From Clostridia bacterium (lineage in GTDB: Bacteria; Bacillota; Clostridia; Christensenellales; CAG-138), in the NCBI GenBank assembly GCA_017429985.1, contig JAFRNW010000019.1, positions 13,291-77,290 on the forward strand: 64,000 nt of DNA, in the 5' to 3' direction. The notes under the pieces were generated by a model that made no database searches, was not told the DNA's origin, and saw only the letters and a program-made list of their open reading frames with translations. Position 1 is the stretch's first letter, and every line of letters starts with the position of its first letter. The position numbers and the translations under genes are program-made. Positions 30,115 through 49,652 of this stretch are shown here, one piece after another.

Positions 30115-30159
30115 TGGCGTGCCTGGGAGGATTCGAACCTCTGACCTACAGAGTCGGAG
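30115..30159 (-). other. Displaced 3' half of the original tRNA-Arg(CCG) (attR-like)
   Basis: - strand CTCCGAC-TCTGT-AGGTCAGAGGTTCGAATCCTCCCAGGCACGCCA; followed on - by a terminator-like hairpin at about 30074-30110. Confidence 0.92.
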
Positions 30160-30325
30160 AAGTACAGATAATGATTAGAAAAAAGTTAGTAGCATGGGGA
30201 AAAACGCTTATTTTTGGCGGTTTTTGACAGCTTGGCTATGTCAAAATATATGATAAAGAGTATCGTTATAAAAGGCCTTTTTTAATAGCTCTGTAGTAAA
30301 AATGTAGTATGTTTTCAGCTATAGA
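30115..30325 (+). repeat. About 210-bp direct repeat, copy 1 (tRNA 3' half plus cassette end)
   Basis: Aligns nearly end to end with 37851-38062, including CTGTAGTAAAAATGTAGTATGTTTTCAGCTATAGA. Confidence 0.92.
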
Positions 30326-30570
30326 TATCCTTATAAGGAGTATCAGCAATGCCTATTGTATTTAGCCGCATATTCTTTTTGTCTAATATAGGTTTTCAGA
30401 TATTCTAAAACGGCCTGACATCATATACGATATAATTGCTGGAACTGTGTTTTAATGAGCATAAGGCTTTTCTGTGCATCGTTAGAATTATTTCTGTCAA
30501 ACTAATGAGTTTTCGAGTATAATAATACAATTAAAATGATTTTTTTTCTGATTATTTGAGGTTAAAACTA

Positions 30571-32082: not shown

Positions 32083-32085
32083 TTT

Positions 32086-33282: not shown

Positions 33283-33506
33283 AACAGTTAATTGAGATTC
33301 TGGAGGATGTCAATCCGGGCGTGGATTACAATACTTGCACCGATTTGGTTGACGGCGGTTACCTTAATTCCCTCTCCATCCTCGCTATAGTGGCGGAACT
33401 GGAAGAAGCATTCGACATTGTGATCTCAACAGTAGAGGTAACTCCGAAAAACTTCAACTCCGCCCAGAGTCTTTGGGAAATGGTGCTGCGGCTGAAAGAA
33501 GAATAA
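33279..33506 (+). CDS. Acyl/aminoacyl carrier protein (DltC-like)
   Basis: 75 aa, acidic; GYLNSLSI phosphopantetheine Ser motif; NFNS near the C terminus. Confidence 0.88.
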   Translation: MKQLIEILEDVNPGVDYNTCTDLVDGGYLNSLSILAIVAELEEAFDIVISTVEVTPKNFNSAQSLWEMVLRLKEE

Positions 33507-33510
33507 TACA

Positions 33511-35112
33511 ATGCTCCCGTTGTCTTCCTATTTCTCACTGCTTTACCTAGCAATACTGTTGCCGGGAACCGTGCTGGCTTATACTGTCCTTCCGCAAAAA
33601 TATCGTCGTGCAGTACTCTTGCTGAGCAGTTACGCCGTGTTCTGGCTCGTCAGCGGGAAACTGCTGTGCTATCTTCTATTTTCCACTATCTCGGTTCATC
33701 ATATCGGCTTGTGGTTGGAGAATACCCAACTCGAGGCAAACAGGCTGCTTGAGACTGCGCCGAAAGAAACGCGAAAGGACATTCGGGCACGGACTCAGCA
33801 GAGACGGAAAAAAATAGTAGCATTTGGGATTGCTGTGCAGTTCGGTATTTTGCTGGCGTTGAAATACGGGGCGTTTTTCATCTCCAACTTCAACGAACTT
33901 GCTGACTTAATGAAGGTTACAGTGAAACTACCTGTCCCTTCCGTCATTTTGCCGATTGGCATCTCCTTTTATACCATGCAAGCAGCATCCTACATGCTGG
34001 ATGTGTATCGAGAGAATATCCCTGCAGACCGAAATCTGATGCGTCTCGCTCTTTACATGAGTTTTTTCCCCCAGCTCATGGAAGGGCCGATCTGCCGATA
34101 TTCAGAAACCGCGCAGCAGCTCTGGGACGCTCCGCCTATGCGTTGGAAAAACTTAATGTTAGGCCTCCAACGCATTCTGTGGGGCATCATGAAAAAAATG
34201 GTGGTTGCCGACCGCTTGAATCTGTTAATCACTGAAGCGTTTGACAACTATGTCCACTACGACGGATTCATGATTGCTGCAGCTGTCGTGTGCTACACAG
34301 TTCAACTCTATATGGACTTCTCCGGCACCATGGATCTTGTGCTGGGCAGCGGACAGATATTCGGCATCAAACTGCCGGAAAACTTCCAGCGCCCCTTCTT
34401 TTCACGCACGATTCAGGAGTTTTGGCGTCGCTGGCATATTACGCTTGGTGCATGGTTCCGAGACTACGTTTTTTATCCTATATCACTCAGCGCTCCAATA
34501 AAAAAGCTGCCTCTCCTGCTACAAAAACGGCTGGGAAGAACCTACGGGTTCATTTTTTCCAGTATACCCGCCCTGTTCTGTGTATGGTTATGTAACGGTC
34601 TGTGGCACGGGGCAGGCTGGAACTTTATTTTTTTCGGGATGTACCACTTTGCTTTGATCCTTGTTGAAAATATAATGGAACCCCCTGCTGTCTGGCTGGC
34701 AAAAAGGCTCCATATCAACCGGGACGGCATTCTGTACCGATGTATGCAGATCGTCCGCACCGCCGTACTATTTTGCATCGGCGAACTGTTTTTCAGGGCA
34801 TCTTCCCTGAAAGCGGGGTTTGCCATGTTTAAAAAGATATTTACTGATTTTACACTGGCAAGAGTTAAAGATAACACATTCTTTTCCCATGGTGCAGATA
34901 AGCATGATTTTTTAATCGTTGTCGTGACACTGGCGTTGATTCTGGCGGTCGGGTGCATCCAGGAACGAGGAGTTTCCGTGCGACAGTGGATAGAAAAGAG
35001 AAATCTTGCGGTCCGTCTTTCTCTGTGGTATCTTCTGATTCTTTTTATCGTGATATTCGGCGCATACGGTACCGGATATATTCCGGTTGACCCAATCTAT
35101 GCAGGCTTCTAG
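33511..35112 (+). CDS. MBOAT-family acyltransferase (DltB/AlgI-like)
   Basis: LPIGISFYT, FFPQLMEGPI, YMDFSG, FWRRWHITL, GLWHG; ends PIYAGF. Confidence 0.93.
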   Translation: MLPLSSYFSLLYLAILLPGTVLAYTVLPQKYRRAVLLLSSYAVFWLVSGKLLCYLLFSTISVHHIGLWLENTQLEANRLLETAPKETRKDIRARTQQRRKKIVAFGIAVQFGILLALKYGAFFISNFNELADLMKVTVKLPVPSVILPIGISFYTMQAASYMLDVYRENIPADRNLMRLALYMSFFPQLMEGPICRYSETAQQLWDAPPMRWKNLMLGLQRILWGIMKKMVVADRLNLLITEAFDNYVHYDGFMIAAAVVCYTVQLYMDFSGTMDLVLGSGQIFGIKLPENFQRPFFSRTIQEFWRRWHITLGAWFRDYVFYPISLSAPIKKLPLLLQKRLGRTYGFIFSSIPALFCVWLCNGLWHGAGWNFIFFGMYHFALILVENIMEPPAVWLAKRLHINRDGILYRCMQIVRTAVLFCIGELFFRASSLKAGFAMFKKIFTDFTLARVKDNTFFSHGADKHDFLIVVVTLALILAVGCIQERGVSVRQWIEKRNLAVRLSLWYLLILFIVIFGAYGTGYIPVDPIYAGF

Positions 35113-35125
35113 GAGGAACGGCTTA

Positions 35126-36079
35126 ATGATTTATCTAAAACGAACGGGCTGTGTCATGTTATTCCTGCTGGGGCTGCTGGTAATACTGCTTGCTGCCTCT
35201 GCCATTTTCAAGCCAAAGAACAACATCCCATCGGCAGGGATGGAGGAAACACTTGCAAACGGTATTCTGGGTGAGCCGGAAAACACGATTGATGTTTTGA
35301 TCATTGGTGACAGCGAATCCCGTTGCGCCATATGTCCCATGCAAATTTGGAAAGAAACCGGATTCACCACATATGTGTGTGCGACAGCAGCCCAAAAGCT
35401 TTCTTACAGTTATACCATGCTCGACCGCGCATTTCAGCGACAAAAGCCAAAAATCGTAATTCTTGAGACGCTGGCGATTTTCCGGGAGATGTCATTGGAA
35501 GACGCGGTTAAAGAAATATTATATCATAGGCTTCCTGTTCTCCGCTATCATGATCGATGGAAATGTTTGCATGCCAATGATTTTGGTGGTGCGGTTCTGC
35601 CAGTCTGGACCAATGACAGCAAAGGATATTGGAATACAAAAAAGGTTGATCCCGGTAGTAACGAGCCGTACATGGGTGCCATGGATAACAAATCAAGCGT
35701 CTCACTGCTGAACAGACGTTATGTCCGGGCCATTAAAACACTTTGTGAAAAAAACGGATCCCGACTTCTTCTGTTGAGTACGCCCAGCACCATCAATTGG
35801 AATTATGCTCTGCACAATGGCATTCAGGCAGTAGCTGAGGAACTGGGTATTGAATACATCGACATGAACCTCATGAACGACCGTATCAAAATTGACTGGA
35901 GCAGGGATACTTTCGACAAGGGCGACCATTTGAACCACAGCGGCGCAGTCAAACTTTCCTTGGTACTGTCAGAGTATCTGCAAGAGCAAGGCATTTTCAA
36001 GGATCACCGTGGCGATCAAGCTTATGCAAAGTGGGAGGATATTCTGAAAAACCGCGGGACCGAACCTGAAGAAGAATAA
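35126..36079 (+). CDS. Membrane-anchored SGNH-like acyltransferase (DltD/AlgJ-like)
   Basis: N-terminal TM segment, IGDSE and DKGDHLN motifs; AGGAGG RBS. Confidence 0.75.
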   Translation: MIYLKRTGCVMLFLLGLLVILLAASAIFKPKNNIPSAGMEETLANGILGEPENTIDVLIIGDSESRCAICPMQIWKETGFTTYVCATAAQKLSYSYTMLDRAFQRQKPKIVILETLAIFREMSLEDAVKEILYHRLPVLRYHDRWKCLHANDFGGAVLPVWTNDSKGYWNTKKVDPGSNEPYMGAMDNKSSVSLLNRRYVRAIKTLCEKNGSRLLLLSTPSTINWNYALHNGIQAVAEELGIEYIDMNLMNDRIKIDWSRDTFDKGDHLNHSGAVKLSLVLSEYLQEQGIFKDHRGDQAYAKWEDILKNRGTEPEEE

Positions 36080-36178
36080 TTGTTTTCATAATCCTCCCTG
36101 CTGGTCTTGATAATCTCCGGAGCATGAACGCTCAAATGAGTTCAGAATGCATTTCAAAATGATCGACACAGAAACTAC

Positions 36179-37400
36179 ATGAGCCTGACTATGATTGCGA
36201 GACGAATCATCACCGTTGTCTTGTTACTCATTGTGATGCTTTTTCTGGAACTGAATCAGCATTTTACATGGGGTATGTTTCTGACCGTTCATTTGACCAC
36301 TACGATTTTCATATTGTTCGAAGCGAAACTTCTGCCGGGAATTCCGCAAGGCAGCAGCGTGGACGGGCTATATCCTCCTTACCGCGCTCATTCTTGTCAT
36401 CACGTTCCCTTCCATAATCAGGTCGATGCGATTAACAGAAAAACCTGCAGAGAAACAGGCGCTGTAGCGATGAAGGACGGCAAAGTCAGCGGTGTCATGA
36501 GGGCGGACGGAGCGACGCGGACATCCCGTACTCTGCTCCACCCATGAGAGATCTTTGCTGTAAGGAACCGCAGGACGTGACCGCCTAGGATGGGACCCTA
36601 AAAGCAAATCATTTTACTGCCATGTCCATGCAGATCCGGAAGCTCCCAATCATAGACTCCCTCACGAATATCATAGACAATCACGATTACAGCTGGCTAG
36701 ATTTCAGTGACAACTATATCGCTACGGCATCTAAGGACTCGCTTTACGAAAATGTTAGGAAACCCGCGGGAGAACAGAAGAATCTCCCGTACTGGTTTTC
36801 GTTCACGGCTACTCCCTGCTGTCCGGCCAGCCCTGGTACGCGGATTACAGCGGCGAATGCCTAGCGCGGGACAGCGTCATCGTCGTCAATATAGGATGCC
36901 GTCTGTGCGCATTCAGATTTCTTGCTCTGGACAAACTTGCCGCGGAATCTGAACACTGCACGACCGGAAACCACGATCTTCTGGATTAGATCAAGGCGCT
37001 GGAATGGGTCCGGGACAATATCGCTTCCTTCGGTGGCGATCCTGATAACATCACCGTGGCTTGAGAATCCTCTGGCGCCTCTTCCGTGAGCGTCCTCTGT
37101 ACTTCGTCTCTTGCGGCTGTTCCGCTGGGTCATTCTGGAAAGCTCCATCGTGGCTAGCCGGAAGCCGCCTCATTCCTTCTGCTCCATGGAGGAAGCACTG
37201 CCTTCTTGAAAAGAAGTTCTTCCACGATACCATGCAAAAAACGTATCGGATCTGCGCAGACTGCCCGAAGATTCAATCGCGGGATCCATGGATACGGAAC
37301 ACTACATCACCGTGGACGGCTACGTCCTGCCTGAAACGCCCTGTCAATCCTATCAAAAGGGCATTCATAACGAGGAAGCTATCCTACACGGGTTTCTGTC
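36179..37400 (+). pseudogene. Decayed type-B carboxylesterase
   Basis: Fragments across frames with stops: SKDSLYENVRKP (SEDCLYLNV-like) and [36 protein letters not shown]. Ends are approximate. Confidence 0.75.
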
Positions 37401-37516
37401 GCTTGTCATTTGCGATGGGAAATGCTGATATTGCCGTCAAAAATAGGGCAACAGCGGTGGCTCCGCCGCATTACGCGGATGGTGTGGTGCAGATTCTGGA
37501 GCGTTACTTCCTGTAA
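37400..37516 (+). pseudogene. C-terminal fragment of a Cof-type HAD hydrolase
   Basis: SFAMGNA...K..A..VAP....DGVVQILERYFL. Confidence 0.55.
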
Positions 37517-37850
37517 AAGCATTTGCCTCTAGTATTTATCCAGAGGCAAATGTTTTTCATATAGTATTGGCGCGTGCAAATCAGGTCAACGAAGTGTTCC
37601 AATCAGTTTTATCCTGCTTTTTTCTCCCTGTTGTTTAATTTCTTTATGCCGGTGAGCAATATAGTTCAAAAGAAAATGTAGTAAAATGTAGTAAATCTGG
37701 ATTTTAGGACCGAAAAACGGCTTTCTTGAAAATGCATAAACAGAAGGATATGCATTTTGAACAATAGACTGTAATTCTTTTTTGTAGAAAAAATCTGCTA
37801 CAAAAATGCAAAACAAATGCCCCGAAAACATAGTGTTTTCGGGGCTTTTT

Positions 37851-37895
37851 TGGCGTGCCTGGGAGGATTCGAACCTCTGACCTCAAGAGTCGGAG
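37851..37895 (-). other. Second tRNA-Arg 3' half (junction between the cassettes)
   Basis: - strand CTCCGAC-TCTTG-AGGTCAGAGGTTCGAATCCTCCCAGGCACGCCA; hairpin GCCCCGAAAAC...GTTTTCGGGGC at 37819-37846. Confidence 0.92.
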
Positions 37896-38062
37896 GAGTA
37901 AGGATAACGATTCGAAAAAAAGTTAGTAGCTTGGGGAAAAACGCCTATTTTTGGCGATTTTTGACGGATTGGCTATGTCAAAATACATGATAAAGAGACT
38001 TGTTAAAAAAGGCCTTTTTTATTAGTTCTGTAGTAAAAATGTAGTATGTTTTCAGCTATAGA
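37851..38062 (+). repeat. About 210-bp direct repeat, copy 2
   Basis: Homologous to 30115-30325; TGTAGTA pair at 38029-38046. Confidence 0.92.
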
Positions 38063-38069
38063 ACATAAG

Positions 38070-39080
38070 CTATGAAACCCGAATATCTTTCAATTGTGAT
38101 ACATCAAACTTATAAGAAAGCGGGGCTCTTTCAATGATTAGTGTTCCATCGGGTTTTAATCCAACAATGTAATCATCTCCTGCCCGAACTGCAACTATGT
38201 TTTTCCAGTTTGAAACATCATATGACTTACTGTTTTCTCCCGCAACGACAACTATCCCGTCTTTTTTTAGCCCAATACAGTCATTGTTTTTAACAGAGAT
38301 AGCTATAATATTATCCCATGTTTTGACAGCTTGTTCTATTTTGTAATCATCTAAACCATACCTTGTAGCAGCAACAACAGTTCCGTTCTTTTTAAGACCA
38401 AGAACAAGACGTTCATCGACAGAGATGGCTACGATATTACTCCAATGTTTTACATTCATGCTCTTATTTGATGAAACAACTCGTCCATCAGCTTTTAATC
38501 CTATGGTAACGCTATACGCTGTCCCAGCAGCAACGATGTCTCTCCAATTTGTTGGACTGCTATCGTGTTTATCTATTTCCCCAGCATAAAAAACATGCCC
38601 ATTTTTATCTACGCCTACCGCATGCGTAAGCGAGGAGGAAACATCAATAATATCAGACCATTTTGAAACTCTTCCTTCGCCGAAAACGTTCGTCCCGACA
38701 AAGGTCACGTTTCCGGCTGCGTCAATAGCATAAAAGTTTTTGGAATCTGCTGAAATGGAGACTATATTTTCTAATTTTGATATAGCGGAATTGTCTATTT
38801 CCTTGCCTGGTGCTAGCACAGATCCATCTGTTTTAATGACGTAAATAATAGTGCTATCGGCTGCAATATTATTCCTGCGGCAGATGGAAGCTTGAGTTGC
38901 TGCATCTTTGTAATTGCCTGCCGCCTGGTAATAGACCAGCGCATTAAACGAATCACCGGAAGCTTTGTATTCTGTAGCTTTGTTATAATAAACTTTAGGC
39001 AAAACAGCGAAATTCAGAATCAACCAAACTATAGTACAAAACGCAACTAATGTAGCGAGAATATAATGACTGCGAACCAT
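38070..39080 (-). CDS. RCC1/BLIP-II-like repeat protein with N-terminal TM segment (possibly 5'-truncated)
   Basis: Repeated W.NIVAIS....IGLKKDGTVV units and GNYKDA motif; AT-rich. Confidence 0.78.
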   Translation of the reverse strand: MVRSHYILATLVAFCTIVWLILNFAVLPKVYYNKATEYKASGDSFNALVYYQAAGNYKDAATQASICRRNNIAADSTIIYVIKTDGSVLAPGKEIDNSAISKLENIVSISADSKNFYAIDAAGNVTFVGTNVFGEGRVSKWSDIIDVSSSLTHAVGVDKNGHVFYAGEIDKHDSSPTNWRDIVAAGTAYSVTIGLKADGRVVSSNKSMNVKHWSNIVAISVDERLVLGLKKNGTVVAATRYGLDDYKIEQAVKTWDNIIAISVKNNDCIGLKKDGIVVVAGENSKSYDVSNWKNIVAVRAGDDYIVGLKPDGTLIIERAPLSYKFDVSQLKDIRVS

Positions 39081-39109
39081 CGTATGTACAAATGCTTGGA
39101 GTCGAGTTT

Positions 39110-40140
39110 ATGAAAAGAAAGATTCTTCCCGTTCTGGGGCTTCTGATATGTCTTGCCGCCTGTTCATCCTGTTCACACGCTAAGGGAAAAACAGCTCTTC
39201 GTGCGATTATCGTTCCGAAATTCGAGATCGGGGAGATGAACGGCGACTTTCCCGGAGAAGCTCAGCTGTTCTATGAGCGCTACTGTCCCGGATGCAGGGA
39301 GATCGAAATTCCGCATATTCCTTCGAGCGGGCATCTCTATGTCAATGAGGAAAACGGCGTCGGGATCCTTGTGACGGGTTCCAGGAAAACAGCCGCCGGG
39401 CTTTCACTCATGTCGGTCCTCTCCTCGGATCTGTATGATTTCTCCGATACGTATATCGTCTCTGTCGGTTGCTCCGGAGGAAGCGCAACGATGTGCACAC
39501 TTGGAGATGTGGTCCTTGTTTCTGCGGTCTGTGATTATGATCTCGGGCATCATGTCGACGCGCATGAAAAAAACGAACGGGAATTCACGCATCATGTGGT
39601 TTCCAGACGATGCCTATGCGGATTATGAATTCGAGATTCTGAATGCCGAACTTCGTGAAAAAGCATACGAAAGGATCAAGAACTGTTCGCTGCAGACGAC
39701 AGAACAGGCGAAAGCCGTTATGGCGGAGAATTTTCCGGCACGTGATGAGGACGGGCTTCTTCCTTCTGTCAAAAAAGGGACTGCACTGTCAGGGGACAAT
39801 TACTGGAAAGGGATCTACGGGCATGTGACTGCAAACTTTATTGCGCAGTACTACGGCTGTCCGGATCCGTACTGCGCCACTGAAATGGAGGAGATTGCTG
39901 TCGCGAATACAACGGAATGCTTTGATATGCTGGATCGCTTGATCTCTCTCCGCGTCATCGTCAATATGGACGTTTTCATGGATGACGAAACGCCCGAAAG
40001 CACATGGGGAGAGTATCAGAGCTTCAATGAAAAGGTTGAAAATGAAAATGCAGAAACGGTGGATATCTTCGTGCCGGCCATGCACAACCTGTTCGACGCA
40101 GCAAGCATCGTGATTGATGCCATACTGGACGGGGCGATTC
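39110..40140 (+). pseudogene. Purine nucleoside permease (NUP)-like lipoprotein, frameshifted
   Basis: PKFEIGEM.GDFPGEAQL...DYDLGHH, shift at the A7 run near 39567-39573, then GTALSGDNYWKG...TEMEE...SLRVIVNMD. No stop at the expected end, so the end coordinate is approximate. Confidence 0.65.
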
Positions 40141-40237
40141 GATCCGGGACTGCCCCGGACGGGAGATCAAGCCCTGATACAGCGTTCAGATCCGGATCCC
40201 GTTCTTCTTACGGCTTTCCGCTTCAGTCTTTTCCTTG

Positions 40238-40720
40238 TCAGTCGGACCAGCTGGGCTCGTCCCCCTCTTCGGAAATGCTGACGATATCCACGGCGTTCTC
40301 AATCAATTTGATCATTTCCCATATGGAACGGAACTGGATGGTCTTGTCCGCCTCCATCCAAGTGATCCGCCCCTGCCAGCTGCTGTTCTGCCTGTGCTGG
40401 ACGCGGATGATGAAAGTGCCGATATCTCCGTGTTTCTGGAGAAGCTGTTCGTCGCTCATGACTTTGGTCCTTTCCTGATGTGATGAAAATGGTTTGTTTT
40501 GAGGGAAAAAGCTTCGTTCGTTAGTCCCAGGATGCGGAAACTGCAGTTCATCAAACAACTTTTCCATGAGAAGCGTCATCTGTCCAAGGTCCGAGAAAGG
40601 CGTGGGATCCGTCTGGTAGGCGTGGAAAAGATCCCCCGTAAATTCCCAGTCGTTTCTGTGGTCGATACAGACGACGACGGCGTTTGGTGCTGCGATATAC
40701 CACTGTGAATGCTGTTCCAT
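40238..40720 (-). CDS. Conserved hypothetical protein paired with the BTAD regulator
   Basis: VVCID...TFIIRVQHRQNSSWQGRITW...FRSIWEMIKLI; GAGGTG RBS. Confidence 0.72.
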   Translation of the reverse strand: MEQHSQWYIAAPNAVVVCIDHRNDWEFTGDLFHAYQTDPTPFSDLGQMTLLMEKLFDELQFPHPGTNERSFFPQNKPFSSHQERTKVMSDEQLLQKHGDIGTFIIRVQHRQNSSWQGRITWMEADKTIQFRSIWEMIKLIENAVDIVSISEEGDEPSWSD

Positions 40721-40731
40721 AGATGCGCACC

Positions 40732-41937
40732 TCACTCCTGCGGTGTCCAGAACACGCTGTTCACATAGTACTCGATCCCGGTGCGCTGGCGGCCGACGAG
40801 AAAGTGCGCATTGATGCGCTTCTGGATCACATTGCAGTTCTCGCGCGTGGTGTTGATAAGGAGCACCAGATACTGTCCTTTTCCGTAGCGGCACATTGCG
40901 TCACCGCGGCGGATCGAACGGCGAATTGCATCCCCCATCCTGCTGACCAGCTGATTCAGGACATCTCCCTCGCGCATGGGATTGCCTTTACTGTCCACAA
41001 TCGTGCACAGCATGATGTATACCGACTGTCCTCCGCGCTCAAGCATGCGTTCGACCATGCGATAGATTCCAAGGAACACCGGGTAGTTGCAAAGGTATCC
41101 GCCTTGCGATCTGTCGTGCGCCCCGGTAAGTTCCGACTGGATCTGATCCAAGACAGCGTGCCGGTACTGCATCTTTTCCCCGAGCCGGTCGAATTGCTCC
41201 ATGAGCCTCTTCGACGGCCTCAGACCCTGCTCGTTGAAATAAAACTGGACCGTGCTGTCATATAGCTTCCGTGCATCTTCCGCGCGTCCAAGTGAAACGA
41301 GTGCTTCCATGGTGATCGTTTCCCAATCCGCGAGAGGATCGATCCGGGCGGCATAAAGGCCAAGGTCCTCCATCTGGAAATAATCCTGACTGACTCGGAG
41401 GAGCTCAGACGCCCGCTCGACAGCGGTGCAGAACAGCTCCTTGTATCTTCTGGCTTCCCGCGCAGCCCAAACGGCGCTCGTATGAAATGTCAGGAACTCT
41501 CCGCTGTAGGCATAGCATGCTTGTAGGTAGAGGGACAGCCGTTCATCCAGATCCTTTGTATTCTCCGCCTCGTGGAACAATTCCTCAAAGGTGAAGGCAT
41601 CCACGACGGTGGGAACGGAATCCGACCAGCGAAACACGCCCTTTGTCTGTTCGATGCAGTTTTCCGCCGGAATCCCGGCTTTCAGAAGTTTCTGCTTGGT
41701 GTTGTAGATGACGCTCTGGAGCGCATGATGGATGTTGTTCATGTCCCTGTCGCTGAACAGCAGCTCTTCCAACTTGTCCCGGGACACGCCCTTTTCCTTT
41801 TCATGGATGAGGATCTGCAGAAGGCTGGTGTTCTGGGAATCGATCGCCTTGGAACCGCCGGCGACAAGTTTCCCGTTCCAACGGAGAGAAAAGCCTCCGA
41901 GCATTCTTACATACAGAACGTTTTCCTGCTCTTTCAC
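40732..41937 (-). CDS. SARP/BTAD-type transcriptional activator with C-terminal degenerate GGDEF-like domain
   Basis: VRMLGGFSL, wHTH, VDAFTFE, YSGEFL, EQGLRPS; IRRGDAMCRYGKGQYLVLL. Confidence 0.8.
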   Translation of the reverse strand: MKEQENVLYVRMLGGFSLRWNGKLVAGGSKAIDSQNTSLLQILIHEKEKGVSRDKLEELLFSDRDMNNIHHALQSVIYNTKQKLLKAGIPAENCIEQTKGVFRWSDSVPTVVDAFTFEELFHEAENTKDLDERLSLYLQACYAYSGEFLTFHTSAVWAAREARRYKELFCTAVERASELLRVSQDYFQMEDLGLYAARIDPLADWETITMEALVSLGRAEDARKLYDSTVQFYFNEQGLRPSKRLMEQFDRLGEKMQYRHAVLDQIQSELTGAHDRSQGGYLCNYPVFLGIYRMVERMLERGGQSVYIMLCTIVDSKGNPMREGDVLNQLVSRMGDAIRRSIRRGDAMCRYGKGQYLVLLINTTRENCNVIQKRINAHFLVGRQRTGIEYYVNSVFWTPQE

Positions 41938-42474
41938 TTGGATCTCCTTCGTCGCGGAGGTTTTCCGCGAAAAAACCCGATTTCATCCGCGAAAACGTCA
42001 AACACGTGCGGATTTTCTGTTCAGTAGTAACAAATCATTCTACCACGTACGGAATCTGTACGCACGTTTTTTATCGAGATAACGGTGTCAAACATCTCAT
42101 ATTCTGACATCCATTTATATGCGTTAACACGTGTTCGTTTCCTTTCGGTTGAGTCTGCTAACAAAAAACGATGAGACGTTCCGTGTTCTTTTTCAATCTC
42201 TTTTCCGCTATTCAGTTTTCAAGCTTTCCACAAAAATCGTTGATGAACCACAAAAAAAGCCCATCGTTCCGACAGGCGCTTCATATCCGCTCCGCGCCAT
42301 CGGTCAAGCTTTGGCACCTTGCCGTGCGGTCAACGAGATTGTCTCTCGCACGCTCTTTATGGCACTACGACTGTAACAGTTTGGATCCTGCGCGTCAAAG
42401 CTTTTCTACGGATCGGATCATATCACCTCATGCTTTACTGAACCGGAAAAGCCAGACCCCTGCCAACACGAGCA

Positions 42475-42503
42475 AAAGCCCCAGGAATATCGTTCCTGGG
42501 GCT
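42475..42503 (-). terminator. Terminator hairpin after the surface-protein gene
   Basis: AAGCCCCAGGAA...TTCCTGGGGCTT. Confidence 0.65.
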
Positions 42504-42549
42504 TCTGCAGACTAGCTGTGGTTCATTGTTCGTCGGAGGTTCCAATTCA

Positions 42550-45500
42550 TCAGAACGCATTCTCAATGGTGAAGAAGTCGTATTCCGGGTGCGCCTCGTC
42601 GTAGGAATCCCTGTCAAGGACCGGGGAATAGGTCGCTACCGCGATCGTTCCCGCTTCGGCGTTCAGGGTAATCATGCGGAAGAAGCCGAGGCCGTTTTCT
42701 ACGTCTGAAGCGTAGTTGTACATGATCGCGTTCGCGCTGCGTCCGTCTTCATAGGCCTTGCTCCAGCGCGCTGCGCCTTCCGCATTGCCAGAGAGGATCA
42801 GGGAAACGTTGCTGTTGACAGCGACGATCTCGGATTCGACCAGTTTGCCGAACGCTGTCAGCGTTCCATGATCGAGCGTGTCTGCCGGATTCTTTTCGAT
42901 GAAGTCATTTACAAGGAGAATCACGGTATATTCCGAATACGCGGCAAGCATGTCGTTTACGTACTGGATCCATGCCTGCTGAGCACTGCGCTCTTCATCT
43001 GTGGCATTCCCGTCGAGCACCTTCTGGCTTCCGATGCCTACCATAAGGACCTGATTGTCGGCAAACGGATGGACCCAGACGCTGCCGTTACTGTTTCTTT
43101 TTGCTGCTTCAAAGATACCGTTGCTGAGATAATCCGTATAATCTGCGTCGGCACCGACTTCGTTGCATCCCGCGATGTTCAGATAGGGAAGTTCGCCGTT
43201 CTTTCTGTTCATCCCGTCCAGCGCATCACGGATCAGCTTCCAGGCGGCTTCGTCCTTGCCGTCGGCAACCGCGTTCCCCGTCCCGATTAGAGCGGATGCT
43301 CCAAGGAATCTGTTCTCTTTCAGATACCGGATCATTGCCTGGTAGGCTTCCGCCTGTTTTCCACCCGCTGTCAGATCAGTATCCGAGGTGAGGATGAAAG
43401 ACATCGAGCCGATCATTCCGAGAGGAACCTCTTCGTCCGCAATGGTCGTGGTGGTTGATTTTTTGGTCGGAGTATCTTTTTTCGTTTCCGCCGTGAATGA
43501 ACCATGGATCGTTACATCCTGCGCCGGCATCGTGAAGGTCTCACTGTCCCATCCGCTGAATGTATACCCCTTCGCGACAGCGTTTTCCGCGATAACGACC
43601 TTGCTGCCGAATTTTCTGGCCGTTGCTTCCGGAAGCTCGGATGCACCGGAAGGAACCTTGCCGGAGTACTCATAGGAAACCGTGTACTGATTGCGGTCGT
43701 AATAGAGGTTCAGGACCAGGGAATCGTCCAGTGCGACCGTTCCGTCGGATATGGACGCTGCTTCATTGTAGCGGAAACCTTCGTAGCTGTTGGCGTCCAC
43801 GCTGATCGCTTTTCCGGTCAGAGCGCTTTCTTCTTTCTTCTCGGCGAGCGTGTATCCGTCTGTGTCCGCATTTTCGAGGTAATGGTTGACCGTGTACAGG
43901 GAGGCCGGAACATGGCTGTTGGTGATCACTGCGCGGTTTGCGCCATCGCTTGCAACGGCCTTTTCATATCCGTCCGCAACTTCCGTTTCATCCGCGCTGT
44001 ACCGGATCAGCTGATCGGCAGCATAGGCGTCCAGACCCGAGAAGGTGTAAGACCATCCGTTTGCTTCGGAAAGGACCGCTGTCCTGCCTTTGACCGGTTT
44101 TCCGTTTGCAAGAAGCTGCACGGAGACGCTGCCCGGACGGATCCCGTCCTTGTCGTCCGCGTCGTTCCAGACTTTCCGGACGGAAAAGCTTGTCGTGTAT
44201 TTCGCGTAGACGTTGTATTCCTTCGCAGTATTCGCATTCGATGTAACTGCGGGGAGTTTATACTCGAATCCCTTGGAAAGGAGTTCCCCTTTCTCGTTGT
44301 ACCAGCCCTTGAACGAGATATCCGCCTTGGATTCTTCTTTCGTCAGGGAAGGCTCATAGCTGTACACGGAGATTCCGGACTTGAACTGCTCCTCGCTGTG
44401 TGCCAGCGTGCCTTTCACATACCAGTTGACCGTAACGGAGGGTTGCCATTTCGCAAGGAAGGTAATGGTCTTCGTGCTCCCGGGCGCCTGATCCGCGCCG
44501 TCATAGGTGAAAGATCGTCCGGCAGTATAGATCGAACCGTCATCGGTGTTGTACCAGTGAACAAACCTGTAGTGACTGACCGGTGTCTTTTTCGACGGAT
44601 CCGAGAACGTATGGGTGAAGCTGGAGGCGGAATCAAGATTGCTCCAGGAACCGGAACCGGTAGAAACGTTGTCGATATAACGGTAGTTCAAATACCAGTT
44701 CTGCGTCACTTCGTATACCGGGGAGATGCTGATGCGGAGATCGCCGTTTTCATCTTCGGTGAACAGTCTTGTCGAACCATCGGTGAAGTAGACCGTTGCT
44801 TCGTTGACACCGCCGGAGGACTTGTTGCAACGGAACGCGATCTTGGAGATCTCGCTGCTGCCGCCGGCCAGCGTGAATGCGTTCAGGAACTTGTAATTCG
44901 CTCCGATCCCGGAAGCTGTCCGGTTCTTGCCGCCCACATAGGAGAAGAATCCGCTGATCAGTTTGGTCTGGTTGGATGCCGTGAACGATACATACTTTGT
45001 CGCAGGAACTGCTTTTCCGCCGACAGCGCTTACGGTTGCGTCATAGATGCCGGTAATCGCAACGACGATGGACCCTTTGCTGAGCGTGTCGTATGCGGCG
45101 GTATAGGTCTTGTCTCCGCTGACGGACACGACGTTCGGCGTGAATTTCGAAAAGACATAGTAGTTTTTGTCGCTTTCAGCAGATTCCCGGACGGGCGTCT
45201 CTCCGCTGTATGCGGGAATGGAACCCTTCGCGGCGTATTCTTCCTTCAGCACTGATCCGTCCCAGTTTGTCCAGGTGATCAGGTACATTTCCGAAAAGAC
45301 CGCGGTGTAGACCTGATCGCTGTCCGCTTCCTTGACCGCGGGAGTCCAGCCTTTGAACTGATATCTGCACTTCGCAGAAGCCGCTTTCTCGGGGACTGCG
45401 CCAGTATACGAGGGAATAATTCCCTCTTCCACTTCTTTTGTCATAAGGACTGTTCCGTCCGCGTTTTTCCAGGTAATGGTATAGAACACGGGAACAAGCT

Positions 45501-46125
45501 TGGTCTCTTCCTCTTCCGCGTCTTTGAACGTTTCTTCCTCTTCGGTTTCGAGAGCTTCGGGCAGAGCTTCTGCGATTTCTTCTTTCACCTCAGAAAGCTC
45601 TTCTGCATTTTTATCGGTATCCGCTCCGGAAGCTTCCGCGGCGGACTCCTCGGCTTTCTCCTCTTTCAGGGCCTCGGAGAGATCGGCAATCTCCTTGTCG
45701 CCAGCCTCTTCGACGGCTTCAGAAGCAGCCTGCTCCTCCTCCTTCTCTTCCCGGATTGAAGCCTCATTGACCTTAACGGAATCCGCTTCTTTGATTTCGG
45801 CGTTTTCCGCTTTCTTTTCTTCGGCAGCTGCCGCGATTTCGCTGGAAGCCGGCTTGCTTTCGGCCCTGTCTGCGACGTCTTCCGCCTTTGCTTCCTCAGC
45901 TGTGCTGGTTTTCTCTTCTGATTCCTGCTTGGCAGGACGGATCTCTTCTTTCATTTCCGAAGACTCAGAAGCTTTTTCCGTCTCCTTGACCGCCGACTTA
46001 TCTGCGATCGGTTCAGACGGCATGTCCGACACATCGGATCCGTCGGCAAGAGCCGTCGGAACGAGCGCCGCAAGCATCATAACAGCGAGTGTCAGGGAAA
46101 GGATTCTCTTCAAAAACGACTTCAT
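42550..46125 (-). CDS. Large secreted/surface protein (acidic spacer, B-repeat/CnaB/MucBP-like modules, degenerate phosphoesterase-like C terminus)
   Basis: Signal peptide; YTITWKNADG repeats; CnaB-like KVWNDADDKDGIRPGSVSVQLLANG; FTMPAQDVTIHGSF; IADEEVPL. Confidence 0.85.
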   Translation of the reverse strand: MKSFLKRILSLTLAVMMLAALVPTALADGSDVSDMPSEPIADKSAVKETEKASESSEMKEEIRPAKQESEEKTSTAEEAKAEDVADRAESKPASSEIAAAAEEKKAENAEIKEADSVKVNEASIREEKEEEQAASEAVEEAGDKEIADLSEALKEEKAEESAAEASGADTDKNAEELSEVKEEIAEALPEALETEEEETFKDAEEEETKLVPVFYTITWKNADGTVLMTKEVEEGIIPSYTGAVPEKAASAKCRYQFKGWTPAVKEADSDQVYTAVFSEMYLITWTNWDGSVLKEEYAAKGSIPAYSGETPVRESAESDKNYYVFSKFTPNVVSVSGDKTYTAAYDTLSKGSIVVAITGIYDATVSAVGGKAVPATKYVSFTASNQTKLISGFFSYVGGKNRTASGIGANYKFLNAFTLAGGSSEISKIAFRCNKSSGGVNEATVYFTDGSTRLFTEDENGDLRISISPVYEVTQNWYLNYRYIDNVSTGSGSWSNLDSASSFTHTFSDPSKKTPVSHYRFVHWYNTDDGSIYTAGRSFTYDGADQAPGSTKTITFLAKWQPSVTVNWYVKGTLAHSEEQFKSGISVYSYEPSLTKEESKADISFKGWYNEKGELLSKGFEYKLPAVTSNANTAKEYNVYAKYTTSFSVRKVWNDADDKDGIRPGSVSVQLLANGKPVKGRTAVLSEANGWSYTFSGLDAYAADQLIRYSADETEVADGYEKAVASDGANRAVITNSHVPASLYTVNHYLENADTDGYTLAEKKEESALTGKAISVDANSYEGFRYNEAASISDGTVALDDSLVLNLYYDRNQYTVSYEYSGKVPSGASELPEATARKFGSKVVIAENAVAKGYTFSGWDSETFTMPAQDVTIHGSFTAETKKDTPTKKSTTTTIADEEVPLGMIGSMSFILTSDTDLTAGGKQAEAYQAMIRYLKENRFLGASALIGTGNAVADGKDEAAWKLIRDALDGMNRKNGELPYLNIAGCNEVGADADYTDYLSNGIFEAAKRNSNGSVWVHPFADNQVLMVGIGSQKVLDGNATDEERSAQQAWIQYVNDMLAAYSEYTVILLVNDFIEKNPADTLDHGTLTAFGKLVESEIVAVNSNVSLILSGNAEGAARWSKAYEDGRSANAIMYNYASDVENGLGFFRMITLNAEAGTIAVATYSPVLDRDSYDEAHPEYDFFTIENAF

Positions 46126-46248
46126 TTGGAACCTCCGGTTTCGGATCCGCCGCAGCAGATCTCTTTTTCATGTCTTTAGTCTAACCGGGGTGCTGTCACT
46201 AAAATAATCAAAAAAAGCAGAATAAAAAGGTAATTTATCAAAAATTTA

Positions 46249-46410
46249 GGATCTTCAACAAAAGTTGTGGAAAGCTTGCCTCGTTGAAGGCAGTGATAGG
46301 TATTTGATCAAGGTAAAGAAGTAGTCGTCATTGCGGTATCCGCAGCCGACACGCTTCGTGACCTTGGTCTTATTATTGAATCCTTCCAGCTTTCCGGTAC
46401 TGATCGGATA
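46249..46410 (-). mobile_element. ISL3-family transposase 3' remnant with right end
   Basis: YPISTGKLEGFNNKTKVTKRVGCGYRNDDYFF; end CCACAACTTTTGTTGAAGATCC. Confidence 0.8.
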
Positions 46411-46651
46411 AACCGTTTTAAGATCCTTGACCTGAAACACGCCTATACACTCGTGTTTGAGTACATTGAAGCTTTTTACAATACCGTCAGAATCCATAGC
46501 CATTGTAATTACATGTCCCCTGATCAGTTCGAAAAGCTTTACCGCAAGCTCACCGTTGCTTAAGGGGATGACCAGGAACCTGTTCTCAGTATTTATTCTC
46601 TATGTGGAAAATCTCTCATTTTAATTTGCGCTAAATCTTGACATAGGACCA
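46411..46651 (+). mobile_element. IS3-family transposase 3' remnant with right inverted repeat
   Basis: Manual translation NRFKILDLKHAYTLVFEYIEAFYNTVRIHSHCNYMSPDQFE; ends ...TCTTGACATAGGACCA. Confidence 0.78.
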
Positions 46652-46798
46652 CACGGATACCCTTCTCGAGATCATCCGTAATCTCTTTCATTCTTTCATG
46701 TTGCTGATCTGCATCTCTGTCTCCTCTTTTTTGGTAAAAGAAAAACGCCTGCAAAGCAGACGTTTAACCAGACAAACTGGAATTTGTCAGTGTGCCGG

Positions 46799-47671
46799 TC
46801 AAAGTGATCTCTGCATACAATACATGGTATGCCCCTTCGGATAATCCTCAAGCACGCCGGTCACTGTCCCATAACCATTCTTTCGGAAAAACCCAACGTT
46901 CCAATCATATGCTTCAAGAAACACGACGTCGGCCCCGTTTTCTTTGGCCTCCCGCTCATACTCGCGGAGCAGCCGGGTACCGATCCCTTGCCCCCGGTAT
47001 GGCTCGTCCACCCAGAGCGCATCGATATCCGTGCCGTTCCATCCGTCTACGCCACCGACAAGACCGGCTATGATCCTGCCGTTCTCATCCGTGACCTTTT
47101 TCTCGATGGAAACGTATTCGTGCCCGCGCGGCGCGAATGCTTCGACGTGTCTGCGCAGTCTGCCGGAGAGGAACTCCGCATCCTCTTTGCCGCCCGGGAC
47201 GATCTCATATTTATTGGTGTTTGAAGGATCGTGTTCAATTGCGGTTTGATCGAGCCTTTTCGTCATGAAATAGTGCTCATGTCCCTTCGGAACACCCGTC
47301 ATCGTGTCATTCACCATATAGCCGTGGTTTTCGTAGAACGATTTTGCCTGAAAATCGAAAGTTCCGACCATGGCGAGATAGCAGTCAAGCTCTTTTGCTC
47401 TCTTCTCAGTCTCCTTGATCAGCGCGGAGGCAATACCCTGACGACGGTATGCTTCCTCTACCCACAGATCGAATATCGACGCTGTCTTCCGTTCATCGAC
47501 TGTCAGAATACATCCGCCGAGAAGACTTCCTTTTTCATCTGTGACTTTATACACGAATTCTTCTTCCTCGGCACCTTCTTCAGGCGGAGCGATGGTATCG
47601 AACACCCGGCCTGCCTGTTCTTCAATGTATTCAGCGTCTTCTTCAGAACAATGCATCATATTGAATGACAT
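46799..47671 (-). CDS. Tandem-domain GNAT acetyltransferase
   Basis: Two GNAT repeats: LWVEEAYRRQGIA and LWVDEPYRGQGIG. Confidence 0.9.
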   Translation of the reverse strand: MSFNMMHCSEEDAEYIEEQAGRVFDTIAPPEEGAEEEEFVYKVTDEKGSLLGGCILTVDERKTASIFDLWVEEAYRRQGIASALIKETEKRAKELDCYLAMVGTFDFQAKSFYENHGYMVNDTMTGVPKGHEHYFMTKRLDQTAIEHDPSNTNKYEIVPGGKEDAEFLSGRLRRHVEAFAPRGHEYVSIEKKVTDENGRIIAGLVGGVDGWNGTDIDALWVDEPYRGQGIGTRLLREYEREAKENGADVVFLEAYDWNVGFFRKNGYGTVTGVLEDYPKGHTMYCMQRSL

Positions 47672-48006
47672 TTCATTTCCTCCTCAAATCCCGATTAGCT
47701 GAGATCATTATCCCAAAGAAGGAATGTCATCGCAACCGCGGGAAGTCAATGTTTTCAATGACTTTATCGGATGAATTTTCATTCGGAATCATTGTATATA
47801 TGAGGGAGGAGACAACCGGGAAAAAGACGATAAATACCTGTCAAAAAAACATGATTAAAATAAAAATGTAGTAAAATGTAGTAAATCTGAAAAAACAGCT
47901 TAGAAAATGGTCGTTGAAAATGTATAAAAGCACGGTTTATGCATTTAGAATGGAAGGCTGATGCTGATCCGAGTTGTACCCCCATCAATAACGGAAGCGA
48001 AAAAAT

Positions 48007-48042
48007 AAAAGTCCCGAAAACGTTGATTTTTCGGGACTTTTT
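48007..48042 (-). terminator. Terminator after tRNA-Arg
   Basis: AAAAGTCCCGAAAA...TTTTCGGGACTTTT. Confidence 0.75.
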
Positions 48043-48119
48043 TGGCGTGCCTGGGAGGATTCGAACCTCTGCCCTTTGGAGTCGGAGTCCAACGCTCTTT
48101 CCAGCTGAGCTACAGGCAC
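48043..48119 (-). tRNA. tRNA-Arg(CCG), intact, 77 nt
   Basis: GTGCCTGTAGCTCAGCTGGAAAGAGCGTTGGA-CTCCGAC-TCCAAAGGGCAGAGGTTCGAATCCTCCCAGGCACGCCA forms a cloverleaf with encoded CCA. Confidence 0.95.
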
Positions 48120-48162
48120 ACAATAAAGTTTATGCATTTTTCAAGAACCATAGACCGTCAGC

Positions 48163-48201
48163 GTCGGAGTCTGTCACTCTATCCAACTGAGCTACAGGCA
48201 C
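48163..48201 (-). pseudogene. Orphan 5' half of the original tRNA-Arg(CCG) (attL-like)
   Basis: GTGCCTGTAGCTCAGTTGGATAGAGTGACAGA-CTCCGAC; its ACAGA pairs with TCTGT of the 3' half at 30115-30159. Confidence 0.92.
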
Positions 48202-48298
48202 AGGGCGCGGCTGGGATTCATGGACCGGCGTACCGGAAGCGTGACCCGTTCGTGATCACCCCGCGGATCTTTCCGCGATGGTTTTGCGCGCGAAAATA

Positions 48299-48327
48299 AT
48301 TATATCACATCGATTCAGTCAGGACAA
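48299..48327 (-). promoter_or_regulatory. Promoter of the tRNA locus
   Basis: TTGTCC-17bp-TATAAT with extended TG. Confidence 0.65.
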
Positions 48328-49652
48328 TATCGAATCGTATCGATCGCTTCTTCAATGGTCGCGACGGAAATCAAAGTAACGCCGTCGGCAGCTTTCGGAT
48401 GCGCCGATTTCGGAACGATGACCCTGCGGTATCCCAGCCGGGCGCATTCCTTCAGTCTGGTGTCCAGCTGCGCCACGCTTCGGAGTTCCCCGGTCAGTCC
48501 GAGTTCTCCGATGCAGGCGGTGTCGGGAGGAAGAGGATGGCGGTAGAAAGCGGAGGCAACGCAGAGAGCGACCGCAAGATCCACGCCGCGTTCATCCAGA
48601 CGGAGATTGCCGACGACATTGATGTACACGTCCTGATCGGAAAGCCTGATCTGGGCCTTCTGTTCCAGAACGGCGAGCAGGAGGCTCAATCTGCCCGCGT
48701 CAACTCCGGAGGCGGTTCTGCGGGGACTTCCGAAGGAGGTCGGATTCAGCAGCGCCTGAATTTCCGCGAGCATTGGCCTGGAACCTTCCACCGTGCAGGT
48801 AACCGCGCACCCCGGATACCGTTCACCGGAAAGGAACAGCCTTGACGGGTCGGTGACCTGCTGCATGCCGGTATCCGTCATTTCGAAGACACCGATCTCG
48901 TTCGTGGACCCGAAACGGTTCTTGACCGCGCGAAGGAGGCGGAGCCCTGCGTGCCGGTCTCCTTCAAAATAGAGAACGGTGTCGACGATATGTTCCAGAA
49001 CACGGGGACCGGCAATCGCGCCTTCTTTTGTGACGTGTCCGACGATCAGCACGACCGTGCCGTTTTCCTTGGCGTATCTGGTCAGTTCGGCGGTACAGAG
49101 CCTGACCTGACTGACGCTTCCGAGCGCGCTTTCGGATTCCTCGGAATAAAGGGTCTGGATGGAATCGACGATCAGGATGTCGCATTTGGTAGCCTTGGCC
49201 TGGTCCAGAATGCGTTCGAGAGAGGTTTCGCACAGCAGCAGGATGTCCCCGCTGACTTTCAGACGGTCCGCCCGGAGCTTCAGCTGGGCGGAACTCTCCT
49301 CTCCGGACGCGTACAGCACGGTGCTGTTTGCGGACATGGAGTCAGCTGCCTGCATCAGTAACGTGGATTTTCCGATTCCGGGATCCCCGCAGAGAAGCGC
49401 GACCATGCCGGACAGCAGTCCGCCGCCCGTCACTCTGTCAAGCTCGGACATGCCGGTCGAGATCCTGGCTGTATGGCGGACCGACACCTCGGAAAGATGC
49501 TGAACGGCTCCGCCGGATGAGGCCGGACGTATCTTGATCTGCTGGTCTTCCACGATGGTGTTCCAGCTGCCGCATGCGGGACAGCGCCCGAGCCATTTCA
49601 TGCTCTCGAACCCGCATTCCCCGCAGATATAAACTGTCTTCGTTTTTGCCAT
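48315..49652 (-). CDS. radA: DNA repair protein RadA/Sms
   Basis: C4 zinc finger, GDPGIGKST, KNRFG, Lon-like C terminus. Confidence 0.97.
   Translation of the reverse strand: MAKTKTVYICGECGFESMKWLGRCPACGSWNTIVEDQQIKIRPASSGGAVQHLSEVSVRHTARISTGMSELDRVTGGGLLSGMVALLCGDPGIGKSTLLMQAADSMSANSTVLYASGEESSAQLKLRADRLKVSGDILLLCETSLERILDQAKATKCDILIVDSIQTLYSEESESALGSVSQVRLCTAELTRYAKENGTVVLIVGHVTKEGAIAGPRVLEHIVDTVLYFEGDRHAGLRLLRAVKNRFGSTNEIGVFEMTDTGMQQVTDPSRLFLSGERYPGCAVTCTVEGSRPMLAEIQALLNPTSFGSPRRTASGVDAGRLSLLLAVLEQKAQIRLSDQDVYINVVGNLRLDERGVDLAVALCVASAFYRHPLPPDTACIGELGLTGELRSVAQLDTRLKECARLGYRRVIVPKSAHPKAADGVTLISVATIEEAIDTIRYCPD

Follow-up and report, generated by a model that had tools for sequence, protein, structure and literature searches.

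Standard genomic islands restore the tRNA gene that they enter by means of a fragment carried in their attP site, as described in the accessible text on Islander (PMC4383910). As genetics has established, some mycobacteriophages have only about 10 bp in common with the tRNA-Lys gene of the host, which integration destroys, and must carry a tRNA-Lys of their own; this tRNA is encoded at a separate place in the phage genome, under a promoter of its own that has been demonstrated (Guerrero-Bustamante and Hatfull, mBio 2024, PMC10865867). Pelagiphages of the HTVC019P type split a host tRNA-Cys or tRNA-Leu gene when they integrate, with a complete tRNA of matching type, encoded by the phage, "likely used instead" according to the preprint (bioRxiv 10.1101/410191). 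Here we describe a related arrangement in a 64-kb stretch of the genome of a Clostridia bacterium (assembly GCA_017429985.1, contig JAFRNW010000019.1), which is referred to in full as the window. A tRNA-Arg(CCG) gene in this window is preceded by the 5' half of another. This feature is probably the promoter-proximal junction of a tandem array, in which two decayed, integrase-less islands, E1 and E2, occupy the sole tRNA-Arg(CCG) gene beside radA and in which E2 brought a whole foreign tRNA with it.

ARAGORN calls one tRNA in the window, a complete tRNA-Arg(CCG) on the minus strand (48043..48119) with the anticodon stem TTGGA/TCCAA, which scores 64.7 bits against the Rfam tRNA model (gathering score 29). 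Upstream of it, and on the same strand, are a spacer of 43 nucleotides (nt) at 48120..48162 and an orphan 5' half of a host tRNA-Arg(CCG), 39 nt in length and covering tRNA positions 1-38 (48163..48201). The orphan directly follows the host leader, and the sequence that precedes it differs from the spacer. The host flank upstream of the tRNA locus contains a radA-like gene (48315..49652, minus strand) with Zn ribbon, KaiC/AAA and ChlI domains, and this flank is conserved in relatives. The orphan ends in the 7-nt anticodon loop CTCCGAC, designated core c0 (48163-48169, minus strand), while a second copy of the heptamer, c1 (48081-48087, minus strand), forms the anticodon loop of the complete tRNA. 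The segment from c1 up to c0 will be called the 82-bp unit. Two more copies of the tRNA 3' part occur on the minus strand. Core c2 with a 3' half whose stem strand is TCTTG (37851..37895; c2 at 37889-37895) marks the junction between the P arm of E2 and the P' arm of E1, and core c3 with a 3' half whose stem strand is TCTGT (30115..30159; c3 at 30153-30159) marks the distal end of the array. Both of these copies begin exactly at the core and extend to the 3' end of the tRNA, which implies two tandem islands rather than one: E1, or cassette 1 (30160..37850, about 7.7 kb), and E2, or cassette 2 (37896..48042, about 10.2 kb). The copies are not expected by chance. A 19-nt pattern from the tRNA 5' end matches only 48183-48201 (exactly) and 48101-48119 (with one mismatch), and the 3' part has three copies in the window (at 30119, 37855 and 48047), with a chance expectation of 0 in each case. 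The last 28 nt of the tRNA are identical across all three 3' copies, and the sequence shared by the four junctions starts exactly at CTCCGAC; from these edges we infer that crossover occurred within the anticodon loop.

The anticodon-stem strand of the orphan, ACAGA, pairs at five of five positions with TCTGT of the 30115 fragment, at three of five with TCTTG of the 37851 fragment and at two of five with TCCAA of the complete tRNA. A hybrid of the orphan with the TCCAA half receives no tRNA call from ARAGORN, and the orphan alone has no Rfam match at E up to 1. The sequence as it actually runs from orphan into spacer forms three of five stem pairs, has no T arm and is not called as a tRNA by ARAGORN. 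Likeness to a tRNA fades past c0; the start of the spacer is a copy of the 3' anticodon-stem, variable and T-stem region; its first 18 nt, a decayed tRNA 3' copy, agree with the 30115 fragment at 12 of 18 positions. A preliminary description of this DNA had given the same positions for the orphan and the complete tRNA, the same 43-nt spacer and the same 12/18 figure for the mimic, and all of these hold. It was also right about the far 3' fragment at 30115-30159, although it named that fragment alone, where a second (37851-37895) exists and divides the inserted DNA into two tandem islands.

Contigs of the same species from other studies bear on the origin of the orphan. Contigs of four runs from four studies, all ruminant gut metagenomes by record, were aligned to positions 29700-48700, with four runs flagged as a possible source excluded. 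In the runs X12 and X14, contigs pass through the radA flank (with one mismatch over 543 nt in X14), the exact orphan 5' half, the core and four more bases before entering a regular tRNA 3' half whose T arm is different. Because these contigs use the orphan sequence in an intact tRNA, the orphan is the native 5' half. The preliminary description had taken the orphan and the 30115 fragment together as the original gene, to be seen intact beside radA in island-free relatives. The orphan does stand in an intact tRNA at that place, and its strand pairs perfectly with the fragment, but the 3' half in the X12 and X14 contigs differs from the 30115 half, and contigs of the left flank diverge at about 30028-30032 in all four runs. 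Despite the perfect pairing, the orphan may originally have been partnered by a 3' half other than the 30115 fragment. A joint of 30148 to 48179 with 21 letters between was considered as the island-free allele and rejected, being a tRNA-Arg(CCT) paralogue. Such tRNA-Arg(CCT) genes, which share acceptor, D and T arms with the orphan/30115 pair, are found in contigs of X7 and X12; no tRNA-Arg(CCT) is present in the assembly, where the gene may just be missing from the contigs. Contigs of X7 span the E1/E2 junction. One X12 contig joins 37850 to 30115, as would a circular or tandem E1, although the joint spans a 33-nt repeat and may be a mis-assembly. A joint of 30159 to 37819 in X5 has just 29 letters on one side and was disregarded.

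The complete tRNA appears to be required by the cell. In the assembly, a draft that is 98% complete and may miss tRNA genes, 48 tRNAs are found, and the one at 48043-48119 is the only one with a CCG anticodon, which is the outcome of the genome-wide check for other CCG tRNAs proposed earlier; the other Arg tRNAs have ACG and TCT anticodons. CGG accounts for 23% of Arg codons, or 17.5 per 1000 codons, in 963 long open reading frames (ORFs). Under standard wobble rules, a tRNA with an ACG (inosine) anticodon cannot read CGG. Given a sole CCG tRNA, a codon in regular use and an ACG tRNA that does not read it, the cell depends in silico on the tRNA at 48043-48119, and CGG would, on the same in silico grounds, be decoded with a tRNA supplied by an element.

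Signals for expression of this tRNA are divided between host and element. The sole promoter-like site on the minus strand between radA and the tRNA (48299..48327) precedes the orphan; it consists of TTGTCC and TATAAT 17 nt apart, the latter with a TG ahead of it, and is presumed to be the host tRNA promoter; relatives have TGnTATAAT at the same relative place. The spacer (48120-48162) was scanned and contains no promoter-like site. Directly 3' of the tRNA is an intrinsic terminator, a 14-pair stem followed by a T run (48007..48041, minus strand), which matches the terminator downstream of the 37851 fragment, not the host flank, and belongs to the element. With the lone promoter-like site ahead of the orphan, no such site within the spacer and a strong terminator behind the tRNA, the mature product is likely to come from one transcript that spans orphan, spacer and tRNA and is then trimmed by RNase P. 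The earlier suggestion that the element tRNA sits behind the host promoter agrees with this layout. In the predicted fold of such a precursor (48005-48210, minus strand; -66.6 kcal/mol, z = -2.6), the acceptor strand of the orphan pairs with the 3' end of the functional tRNA. As a hint from prediction alone, the two identical 5' strands may compete in folding.

A mechanism can be proposed on this basis. The islands would be members of a tyrosine-integrase element family that is widespread in this bacterial family, with the 7-nt anticodon loop CTCCGAC as crossover site and with an attachment site made up of the core, then a spacer of about 40 nt, then a complete tRNA-Arg(CCG). Integration would split the host gene, so that its 5' half stays as an orphan behind the host promoter, its 3' half is carried to the far end of the element and the element tRNA lands 43 nt downstream of the orphan. 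The element tRNA would be read from the host promoter as part of a single precursor, ended by the element terminator and trimmed by RNase P, and CGG would then be decoded by this tRNA.

Elements found in relatives demonstrate that spacer and tRNA move together. Three left contexts, namely a TCAGA orphan (G187), an ACAGA orphan behind another promoter (G171 and a matching metagenome contig) and a non-tRNA homologue of the P arm (metagenome locus L100), lead into the same identical 44-nt spacer, which is succeeded each time by the same tRNA, terminator, arm motif and convergent integrase gene. The left edge falls exactly at the core in every context. Since the same unit follows different left contexts from the core on, the spacer, whole tRNA, arm and integrase constitute one recombining unit with its edge at the core. 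The window spacer is identical to the spacer of that element (G187, L060) at 35 of 44 aligned positions, and its class recurs in the genera g63 and g59, with 79-84% identity over spacer, tRNA and terminator. These homologous spacers, together with the like unit at three left contexts, answer the earlier call to look for the 82-bp unit at other attachment sites. By eye, 11 of 70 metagenome loci have the order P arm, core, spacer and whole tRNA, and represent either free attachment sites or joints inside arrays. In G132, an intact 385-amino-acid (aa) tyrosine recombinase (89.9 bits on PF00589) is next to such a tRNA. Judging from the order of parts at a tRNA-Arg(CCT) locus (L035, G171:C6, 2020-3505), the whole-tRNA strategy extends beyond the CCG tRNA: a P arm, an 8-nt core, a 42-nt spacer and a whole tRNA precede a cassette of roughly 0.9 kb, after which come another P arm, a core with a single change and a 3' half. 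A DNA search with the P arm across 240 family genomes matched, beyond the window's own genome, G171 alone, and weakly; it was this match that pointed to the tRNA-Arg(CCT) locus. The far ends of the islands in G008, G010 and G132 were not reached within 20 kb.

Orphan 5' halves are widespread in the family. The available relatives are all of other genera, the closest having 72% identity over radA. Counted loci were those with a tRNA-Arg(CCG) called by ARAGORN and at least 100 nt of upstream sequence, and an orphan was an upstream copy of the 5' half ending in the exact core. An orphan occurs directly upstream of a complete tRNA-Arg(CCG) in 35 of 78 genomes in total, with up to two orphans per genome. 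Near relatives contribute five of nine, the best-matching family genomes 23 of 29 (a biased set, chosen by likeness to the window spacer and tRNA) and further family genomes seven of 40, with at least four more in which decayed orphans are visible by eye. Arrays on metagenome contigs reach four orphans (L133). Among the 70 metagenome pattern matches, nine were false positives, in which the 3' end of another tRNA carries the same heptamer, and seven that had been missed by the first filter were recognised by eye as decayed 5' halves. The usual order is orphan, core, spacer of about 30-55 nt and next 5' end; several spacer classes exist, and the spacer often opens with a copy of the tRNA 3' stem strand. 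Islands behind the tRNAs of relatives bear different paired arm repeats.

Complete tRNAs and orphans occur in many pairings. The window's complete tRNA is 98% identical over 82 nt to that of seven g19 genomes. One tRNA sequence is identical in G006, G012, L053 and L055 while the neighbouring orphans differ, and an identical tRNA beside differing orphans is found in at least three genera. The assignment seen in the window is turned around in G008, with an orphan of the TTGGA type and a functional tRNA of the ACAGA/TCTGT type. The two orphan units of G010 are near-identical 71-nt repeats, each comprising the first 49 nt of the tRNA and a 22-nt leader, and G229 has two orphans with native-looking DNA downstream. 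At the latter locus (L079, G229:C1), a second copy of the last 20 or so nt of the tRNA appears about 190 nt past it, with the native-looking downstream sequence repeated after that copy; this resembles a short 3'-flank duplication. Four other loci (L025 in G024, L027 in G015, L169 and L163) have no recognisable orphan, yet the final dozen bases of their tRNA leader recur at the end of many spacers (AAAACCGAATAT or near). Leaders of this kind may mark an old replacement tRNA with a decayed orphan, or may be an ancestral leader that elements have captured.

A comparison of stems indicates what a half tRNA could have achieved. Repair of the window orphan by the E2 3' half alone would give two of five stem pairs. 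In 71 comparisons of an orphan with its functional tRNA, the hybrid anticodon stem has no mismatch in 43, one in 21, two in five and three in two, and half-only repair would thus mismatch this stem in 28 of the 71. The hybrid acceptor stem has no mismatch in 47 of 71, and the orphan 5' half is identical to the functional one in 22 of 71. Because the hybrid stems mostly match, a whole tRNA would be needed in a minority of cases. It is plausible that carrying a whole tRNA widens host range, and this idea, already part of the preliminary description, becomes testable because natural pairs with mismatched and with matched stems exist (28 vs 43 of 71).

Later recombination could use either core, since the element tRNA holds a second copy. 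Such use would account for half-only junctions, for shuffled spacer modules and for the trails of one or two orphans in relatives: excision from the core of the orphan would take the 82-bp unit along, and use of the inner core would leave the unit behind as a scar (e.g., G229). A broader model follows, which we advance tentatively and consider slightly likelier to need revision than to stand. In it, the attachment site has two cores, one by the P arm and one in the tRNA 82 bp off, and the choice of core would determine whether the host tRNA is repaired, replaced or scarred. The 82-bp unit would act as a portable adapter between chromosomes and elements, freeing the host range of the integrase from the stem sequence of the host; the row of orphans would be an ordered record of replacements, oldest first; and replacement of an essential tRNA would be routine across genera of this gut family.

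A number of observations weigh against the proposal that the window feature arose through E2 as a carrier of the whole tRNA. Among the 20 island ORFs, Pfam detects no Phage_integrase domain, and none of the six PF00589 matches in the genome is on the contig of the window (C14). Only four sites in the 2.13-Mb assembly, one per arm of each island, have the paired motif TACTACA-N3/4-TACTACA on the minus strand (38029 in the P arm and 47867 in the P' arm of E2; 30292 and 37677 in E1). We read these motifs as putative integrase arm sites because like repeats in relatives are found near the end of a convergent integrase gene, immediately ahead of its stop codon. With no integrase on the contig and no motif elsewhere in the genome, there is no sign, one ambiguous contig joint aside, that the E1 and E2 copies can still move. 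The P arms, which are the island ends beside c3 and c2, are 90% identical over 174 bp and have the motif 133-134 nt from the core. On the P' side the motif is 196 nt from c2 in E1, and in E2 it is 198 nt from c1 and 280 nt from c0; by this spacing c1, the core inside the tRNA, is marked as the putative standard core. There are two islands yet one orphan in the window. Spacer and arm classes are freely combined among relatives, and in G189 the same element type stands at an internal junction with a 3' half only. A common spacer and P' arm are shared by three species (G008, at L024/L028, and L053 and L055), and the G008 tRNA between them is different; because core-only exchange does not explain this case, homologous exchange among repeated tRNA pieces is suspected. 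A free circular form did not turn up: the class-a spacer pattern is found in 0 viral contigs, and the G132 integrase has one distant viral-contig relative (29% identity). TACTACA-N4-TACTACA is present in 15 viral stretches that belong to other elements, several of them beside ORFs of about 400 aa or tRNAs at contig ends, and these matches suggest that the TACTACA motif is an integrase arm site. Considered together, the spacing that favours c1, the half-only junction of G189, the shuffled classes and the presence of two islands with one orphan imply that the 82-bp unit is not obligatory for each element.

The same observations can be read to mean that E2 is a standard, 3'-half-only element that integrated at c1 inside a resident TTGGA-type tRNA, the 82-bp unit being an older module from an earlier whole-tRNA element since lost or exchanged. 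The locus would still have been replaced, only not by cassette 2. A motif distance of 198 nt to c1, close to the 196 nt of E1 and unlike the 280 nt to c0, is what this predicts, the junction in G189 supplies an example of the same element type, the free combination of spacer and arm classes fits, and G229, with two orphans and native-looking DNA downstream, indicates that scars outlast islands. However, extra steps are needed, and the remainder of the earlier element is absent from the array. One mismatch and two wobbles result when the E1 3' half is paired with the TTGGA strand. TTGGA/TCCAA is perfect across c1, a match most simply explained by two halves that had always been together, and in another member of the family spacer, tRNA, arm and integrase do travel together. 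On balance this history is unlikely, though far from negligible. As to the earlier claim that the element carries a whole tRNA, spacer and tRNA indeed follow the core in elements of the family, and it is the tie of the 82-bp unit to cassette 2 that is less secure, given a spacing that fits c1 and the shuffling of classes. Whether the unit came with E2 or was already resident, a whole foreign tRNA has replaced the host gene.

Two further histories do without this replacement or reverse it. An orphan might arise with no site-specific recombination at all, by tandem duplication of the leader and 5' part of the tRNA or by gene conversion among tRNA pieces; the 71-nt units of G010 are near-identical repeats of a kind that can grow or shrink by unequal crossing over, and the G008 anomaly hints at gene conversion. 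In the window, however, the orphan and the functional 5' half differ at six of 32 positions and the sequence before the orphan is not spacer, while in many independent loci likeness to a tRNA stops at the core, and a single spacer-tRNA unit stands behind three unrelated left contexts. We regard such an origin as very improbable. Scarcely credible is the converse assignment, in which the TTGGA/TCCAA tRNA is native and the orphan and far 3' halves are element-borne. Same-species contigs run from the radA flank through the exact orphan half into an intact tRNA, the orphan comes directly after the host leader, and the DNA 3' of the complete tRNA matches the element, in the form of the terminator found after the 37851 fragment, rather than the host flank. 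The g19 relatives with a 98% identical tRNA, some of them without an orphan (L075, L077 and L080), would be expected under that assignment, as would the 28-nt 3' end that is identical in all three copies, and the 3' fragments alone are compatible with a crossover in the T arm; such a crossover cannot, however, yield an orphan 5' half. Replacement of the native gene by a whole tRNA that E2 brought remains our preferred account.

Both islands carry cargo genes, and their GC content (0.478 in E1 and 0.497 in E2) is below that of the flanks (about 0.55). By Pfam, E2 encodes an RCC1-like protein, a purine nucleoside permease split in two ORFs, a BTAD regulator, a 1191-aa Cna_B surface protein, a fragment of an ISL3 transposase and a GNAT acetyltransferase. 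The permease region (39092-40478) has the NUP domain divided over the overlapping ORFs 39092-39628 and 39435-40478, and is probably a frameshifted gene. The Cna_B gene and the adjacent transposase fragment (42550-46503) appear to form a strain-variable insert: the four runs leave 43014-46183 almost uncovered, and in one X5 contig 41976 is connected to 46729. The Pfam matches in E1 are to an AMP-binding enzyme, a pyridoxal-phosphate (PLP)-dependent decarboxylase and an MBOAT acyltransferase, in addition to a 75-aa ORF and unknowns. The region 30556-36079 of E1 resembles an acylation set of the Dlt type, with the AMP-binding enzyme, the 75-aa ORF in the place of the carrier protein and the MBOAT protein, plus the PLP-dependent decarboxylase. 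This set may decorate a cell-surface polymer, and it is covered in all four runs from other studies. Pfam detects no phage genes in E1 or E2.

If the proposed history is correct, the principle of replacing rather than repairing a tRNA gene extends from a few phage groups to the cargo islands of a major gut bacterial family, where it takes a more compact form, the replacement tRNA relying on the promoter of the host. An essential tRNA gene would then often be foreign in origin, which bears on tRNA-based phylogeny and on the evolution of decoding capacity. Island finders that expect a fragment, a gene and an integrase would misplace the left edge of such loci or reject them. Orphan 5' halves, for their part, could serve as markers of past integrations.

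Among described systems, the cis-mobilizable elements (CIMEs) of the literature on streptococcal integrative and conjugative elements are integrase-less and flanked by att sites. E1 and E2 are like CIMEs in being flanked by att-type repeats with conserved arms and in lacking an integrase, and unlike them in that no cognate integrase or matching arm motif is found elsewhere in the assembly. Tycheposons were set aside, as the accessible part of the preprint describes ordinary partial tRNAs. Like the islands covered by Islander (PMC4383910), the locus has an intact copy of the tRNA gene at one edge and, at the opposite edge, a 3' fragment in the same orientation (minus strand throughout); an anticodon-loop crossover and tandem arrays are further shared traits. 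In E1 and at the c2 and c3 junctions, the appearance is exactly that of a standard island of this type. In contrast to those islands, the promoter-proximal junction keeps an unrepaired 5' half and adds a whole gene, rather than having the gene restored by the displaced fragment. Islander also requires an integrase for each island (PMC4383910), and none is inside E1 or E2.

The locus is also like tRNA-dependent lysogeny in actinobacteriophages, in which, according to the available portion of the report, a tyrosine integrase acts on a short core in an essential single-copy tRNA gene and leaves no functional tRNA at the junction (PMC10865867). Here, too, there is a 7-nt core without a functional junction tRNA, a complete carried tRNA and a needed, single-copy host tRNA. 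The carriers in lysogeny are temperate phages whose tRNA has its own promoter, whereas E1 and E2 have neither phage genes nor an integrase and no promoter-like site is found between orphan and tRNA. The window arrangement differs further in that the tRNA is 43 nt after the core, in the orientation of the host gene, has no promoter-like site of its own and contains a further copy of the core; cargo islands, which in the window have no integrase, are the carriers, and serial events appear to leave trails of orphan 5' halves. The HTVC019P-type pelagiphages, lytic or temperate podoviruses of SAR11, differ in that their replacement tRNA is not beside the core behind the host promoter, and orphan arrays are not described in the available text of the preprint (10.1101/410191). 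No description of whole-tRNA attachment sites or of orphan 5'-half arrays was found in the open-access literature searched, outside of which most subscription journals fall. The replacement strategy put forward in the preliminary description thus has precedents in the mycobacteriophages and pelagiphages. The replacement principle is already known; what appears to be new is the placement of the tRNA next to the core and behind the host promoter, the second core within the tRNA, carriers that are decayed cargo islands, ordered trails of orphans and the frequency of the arrangement across a bacterial family.

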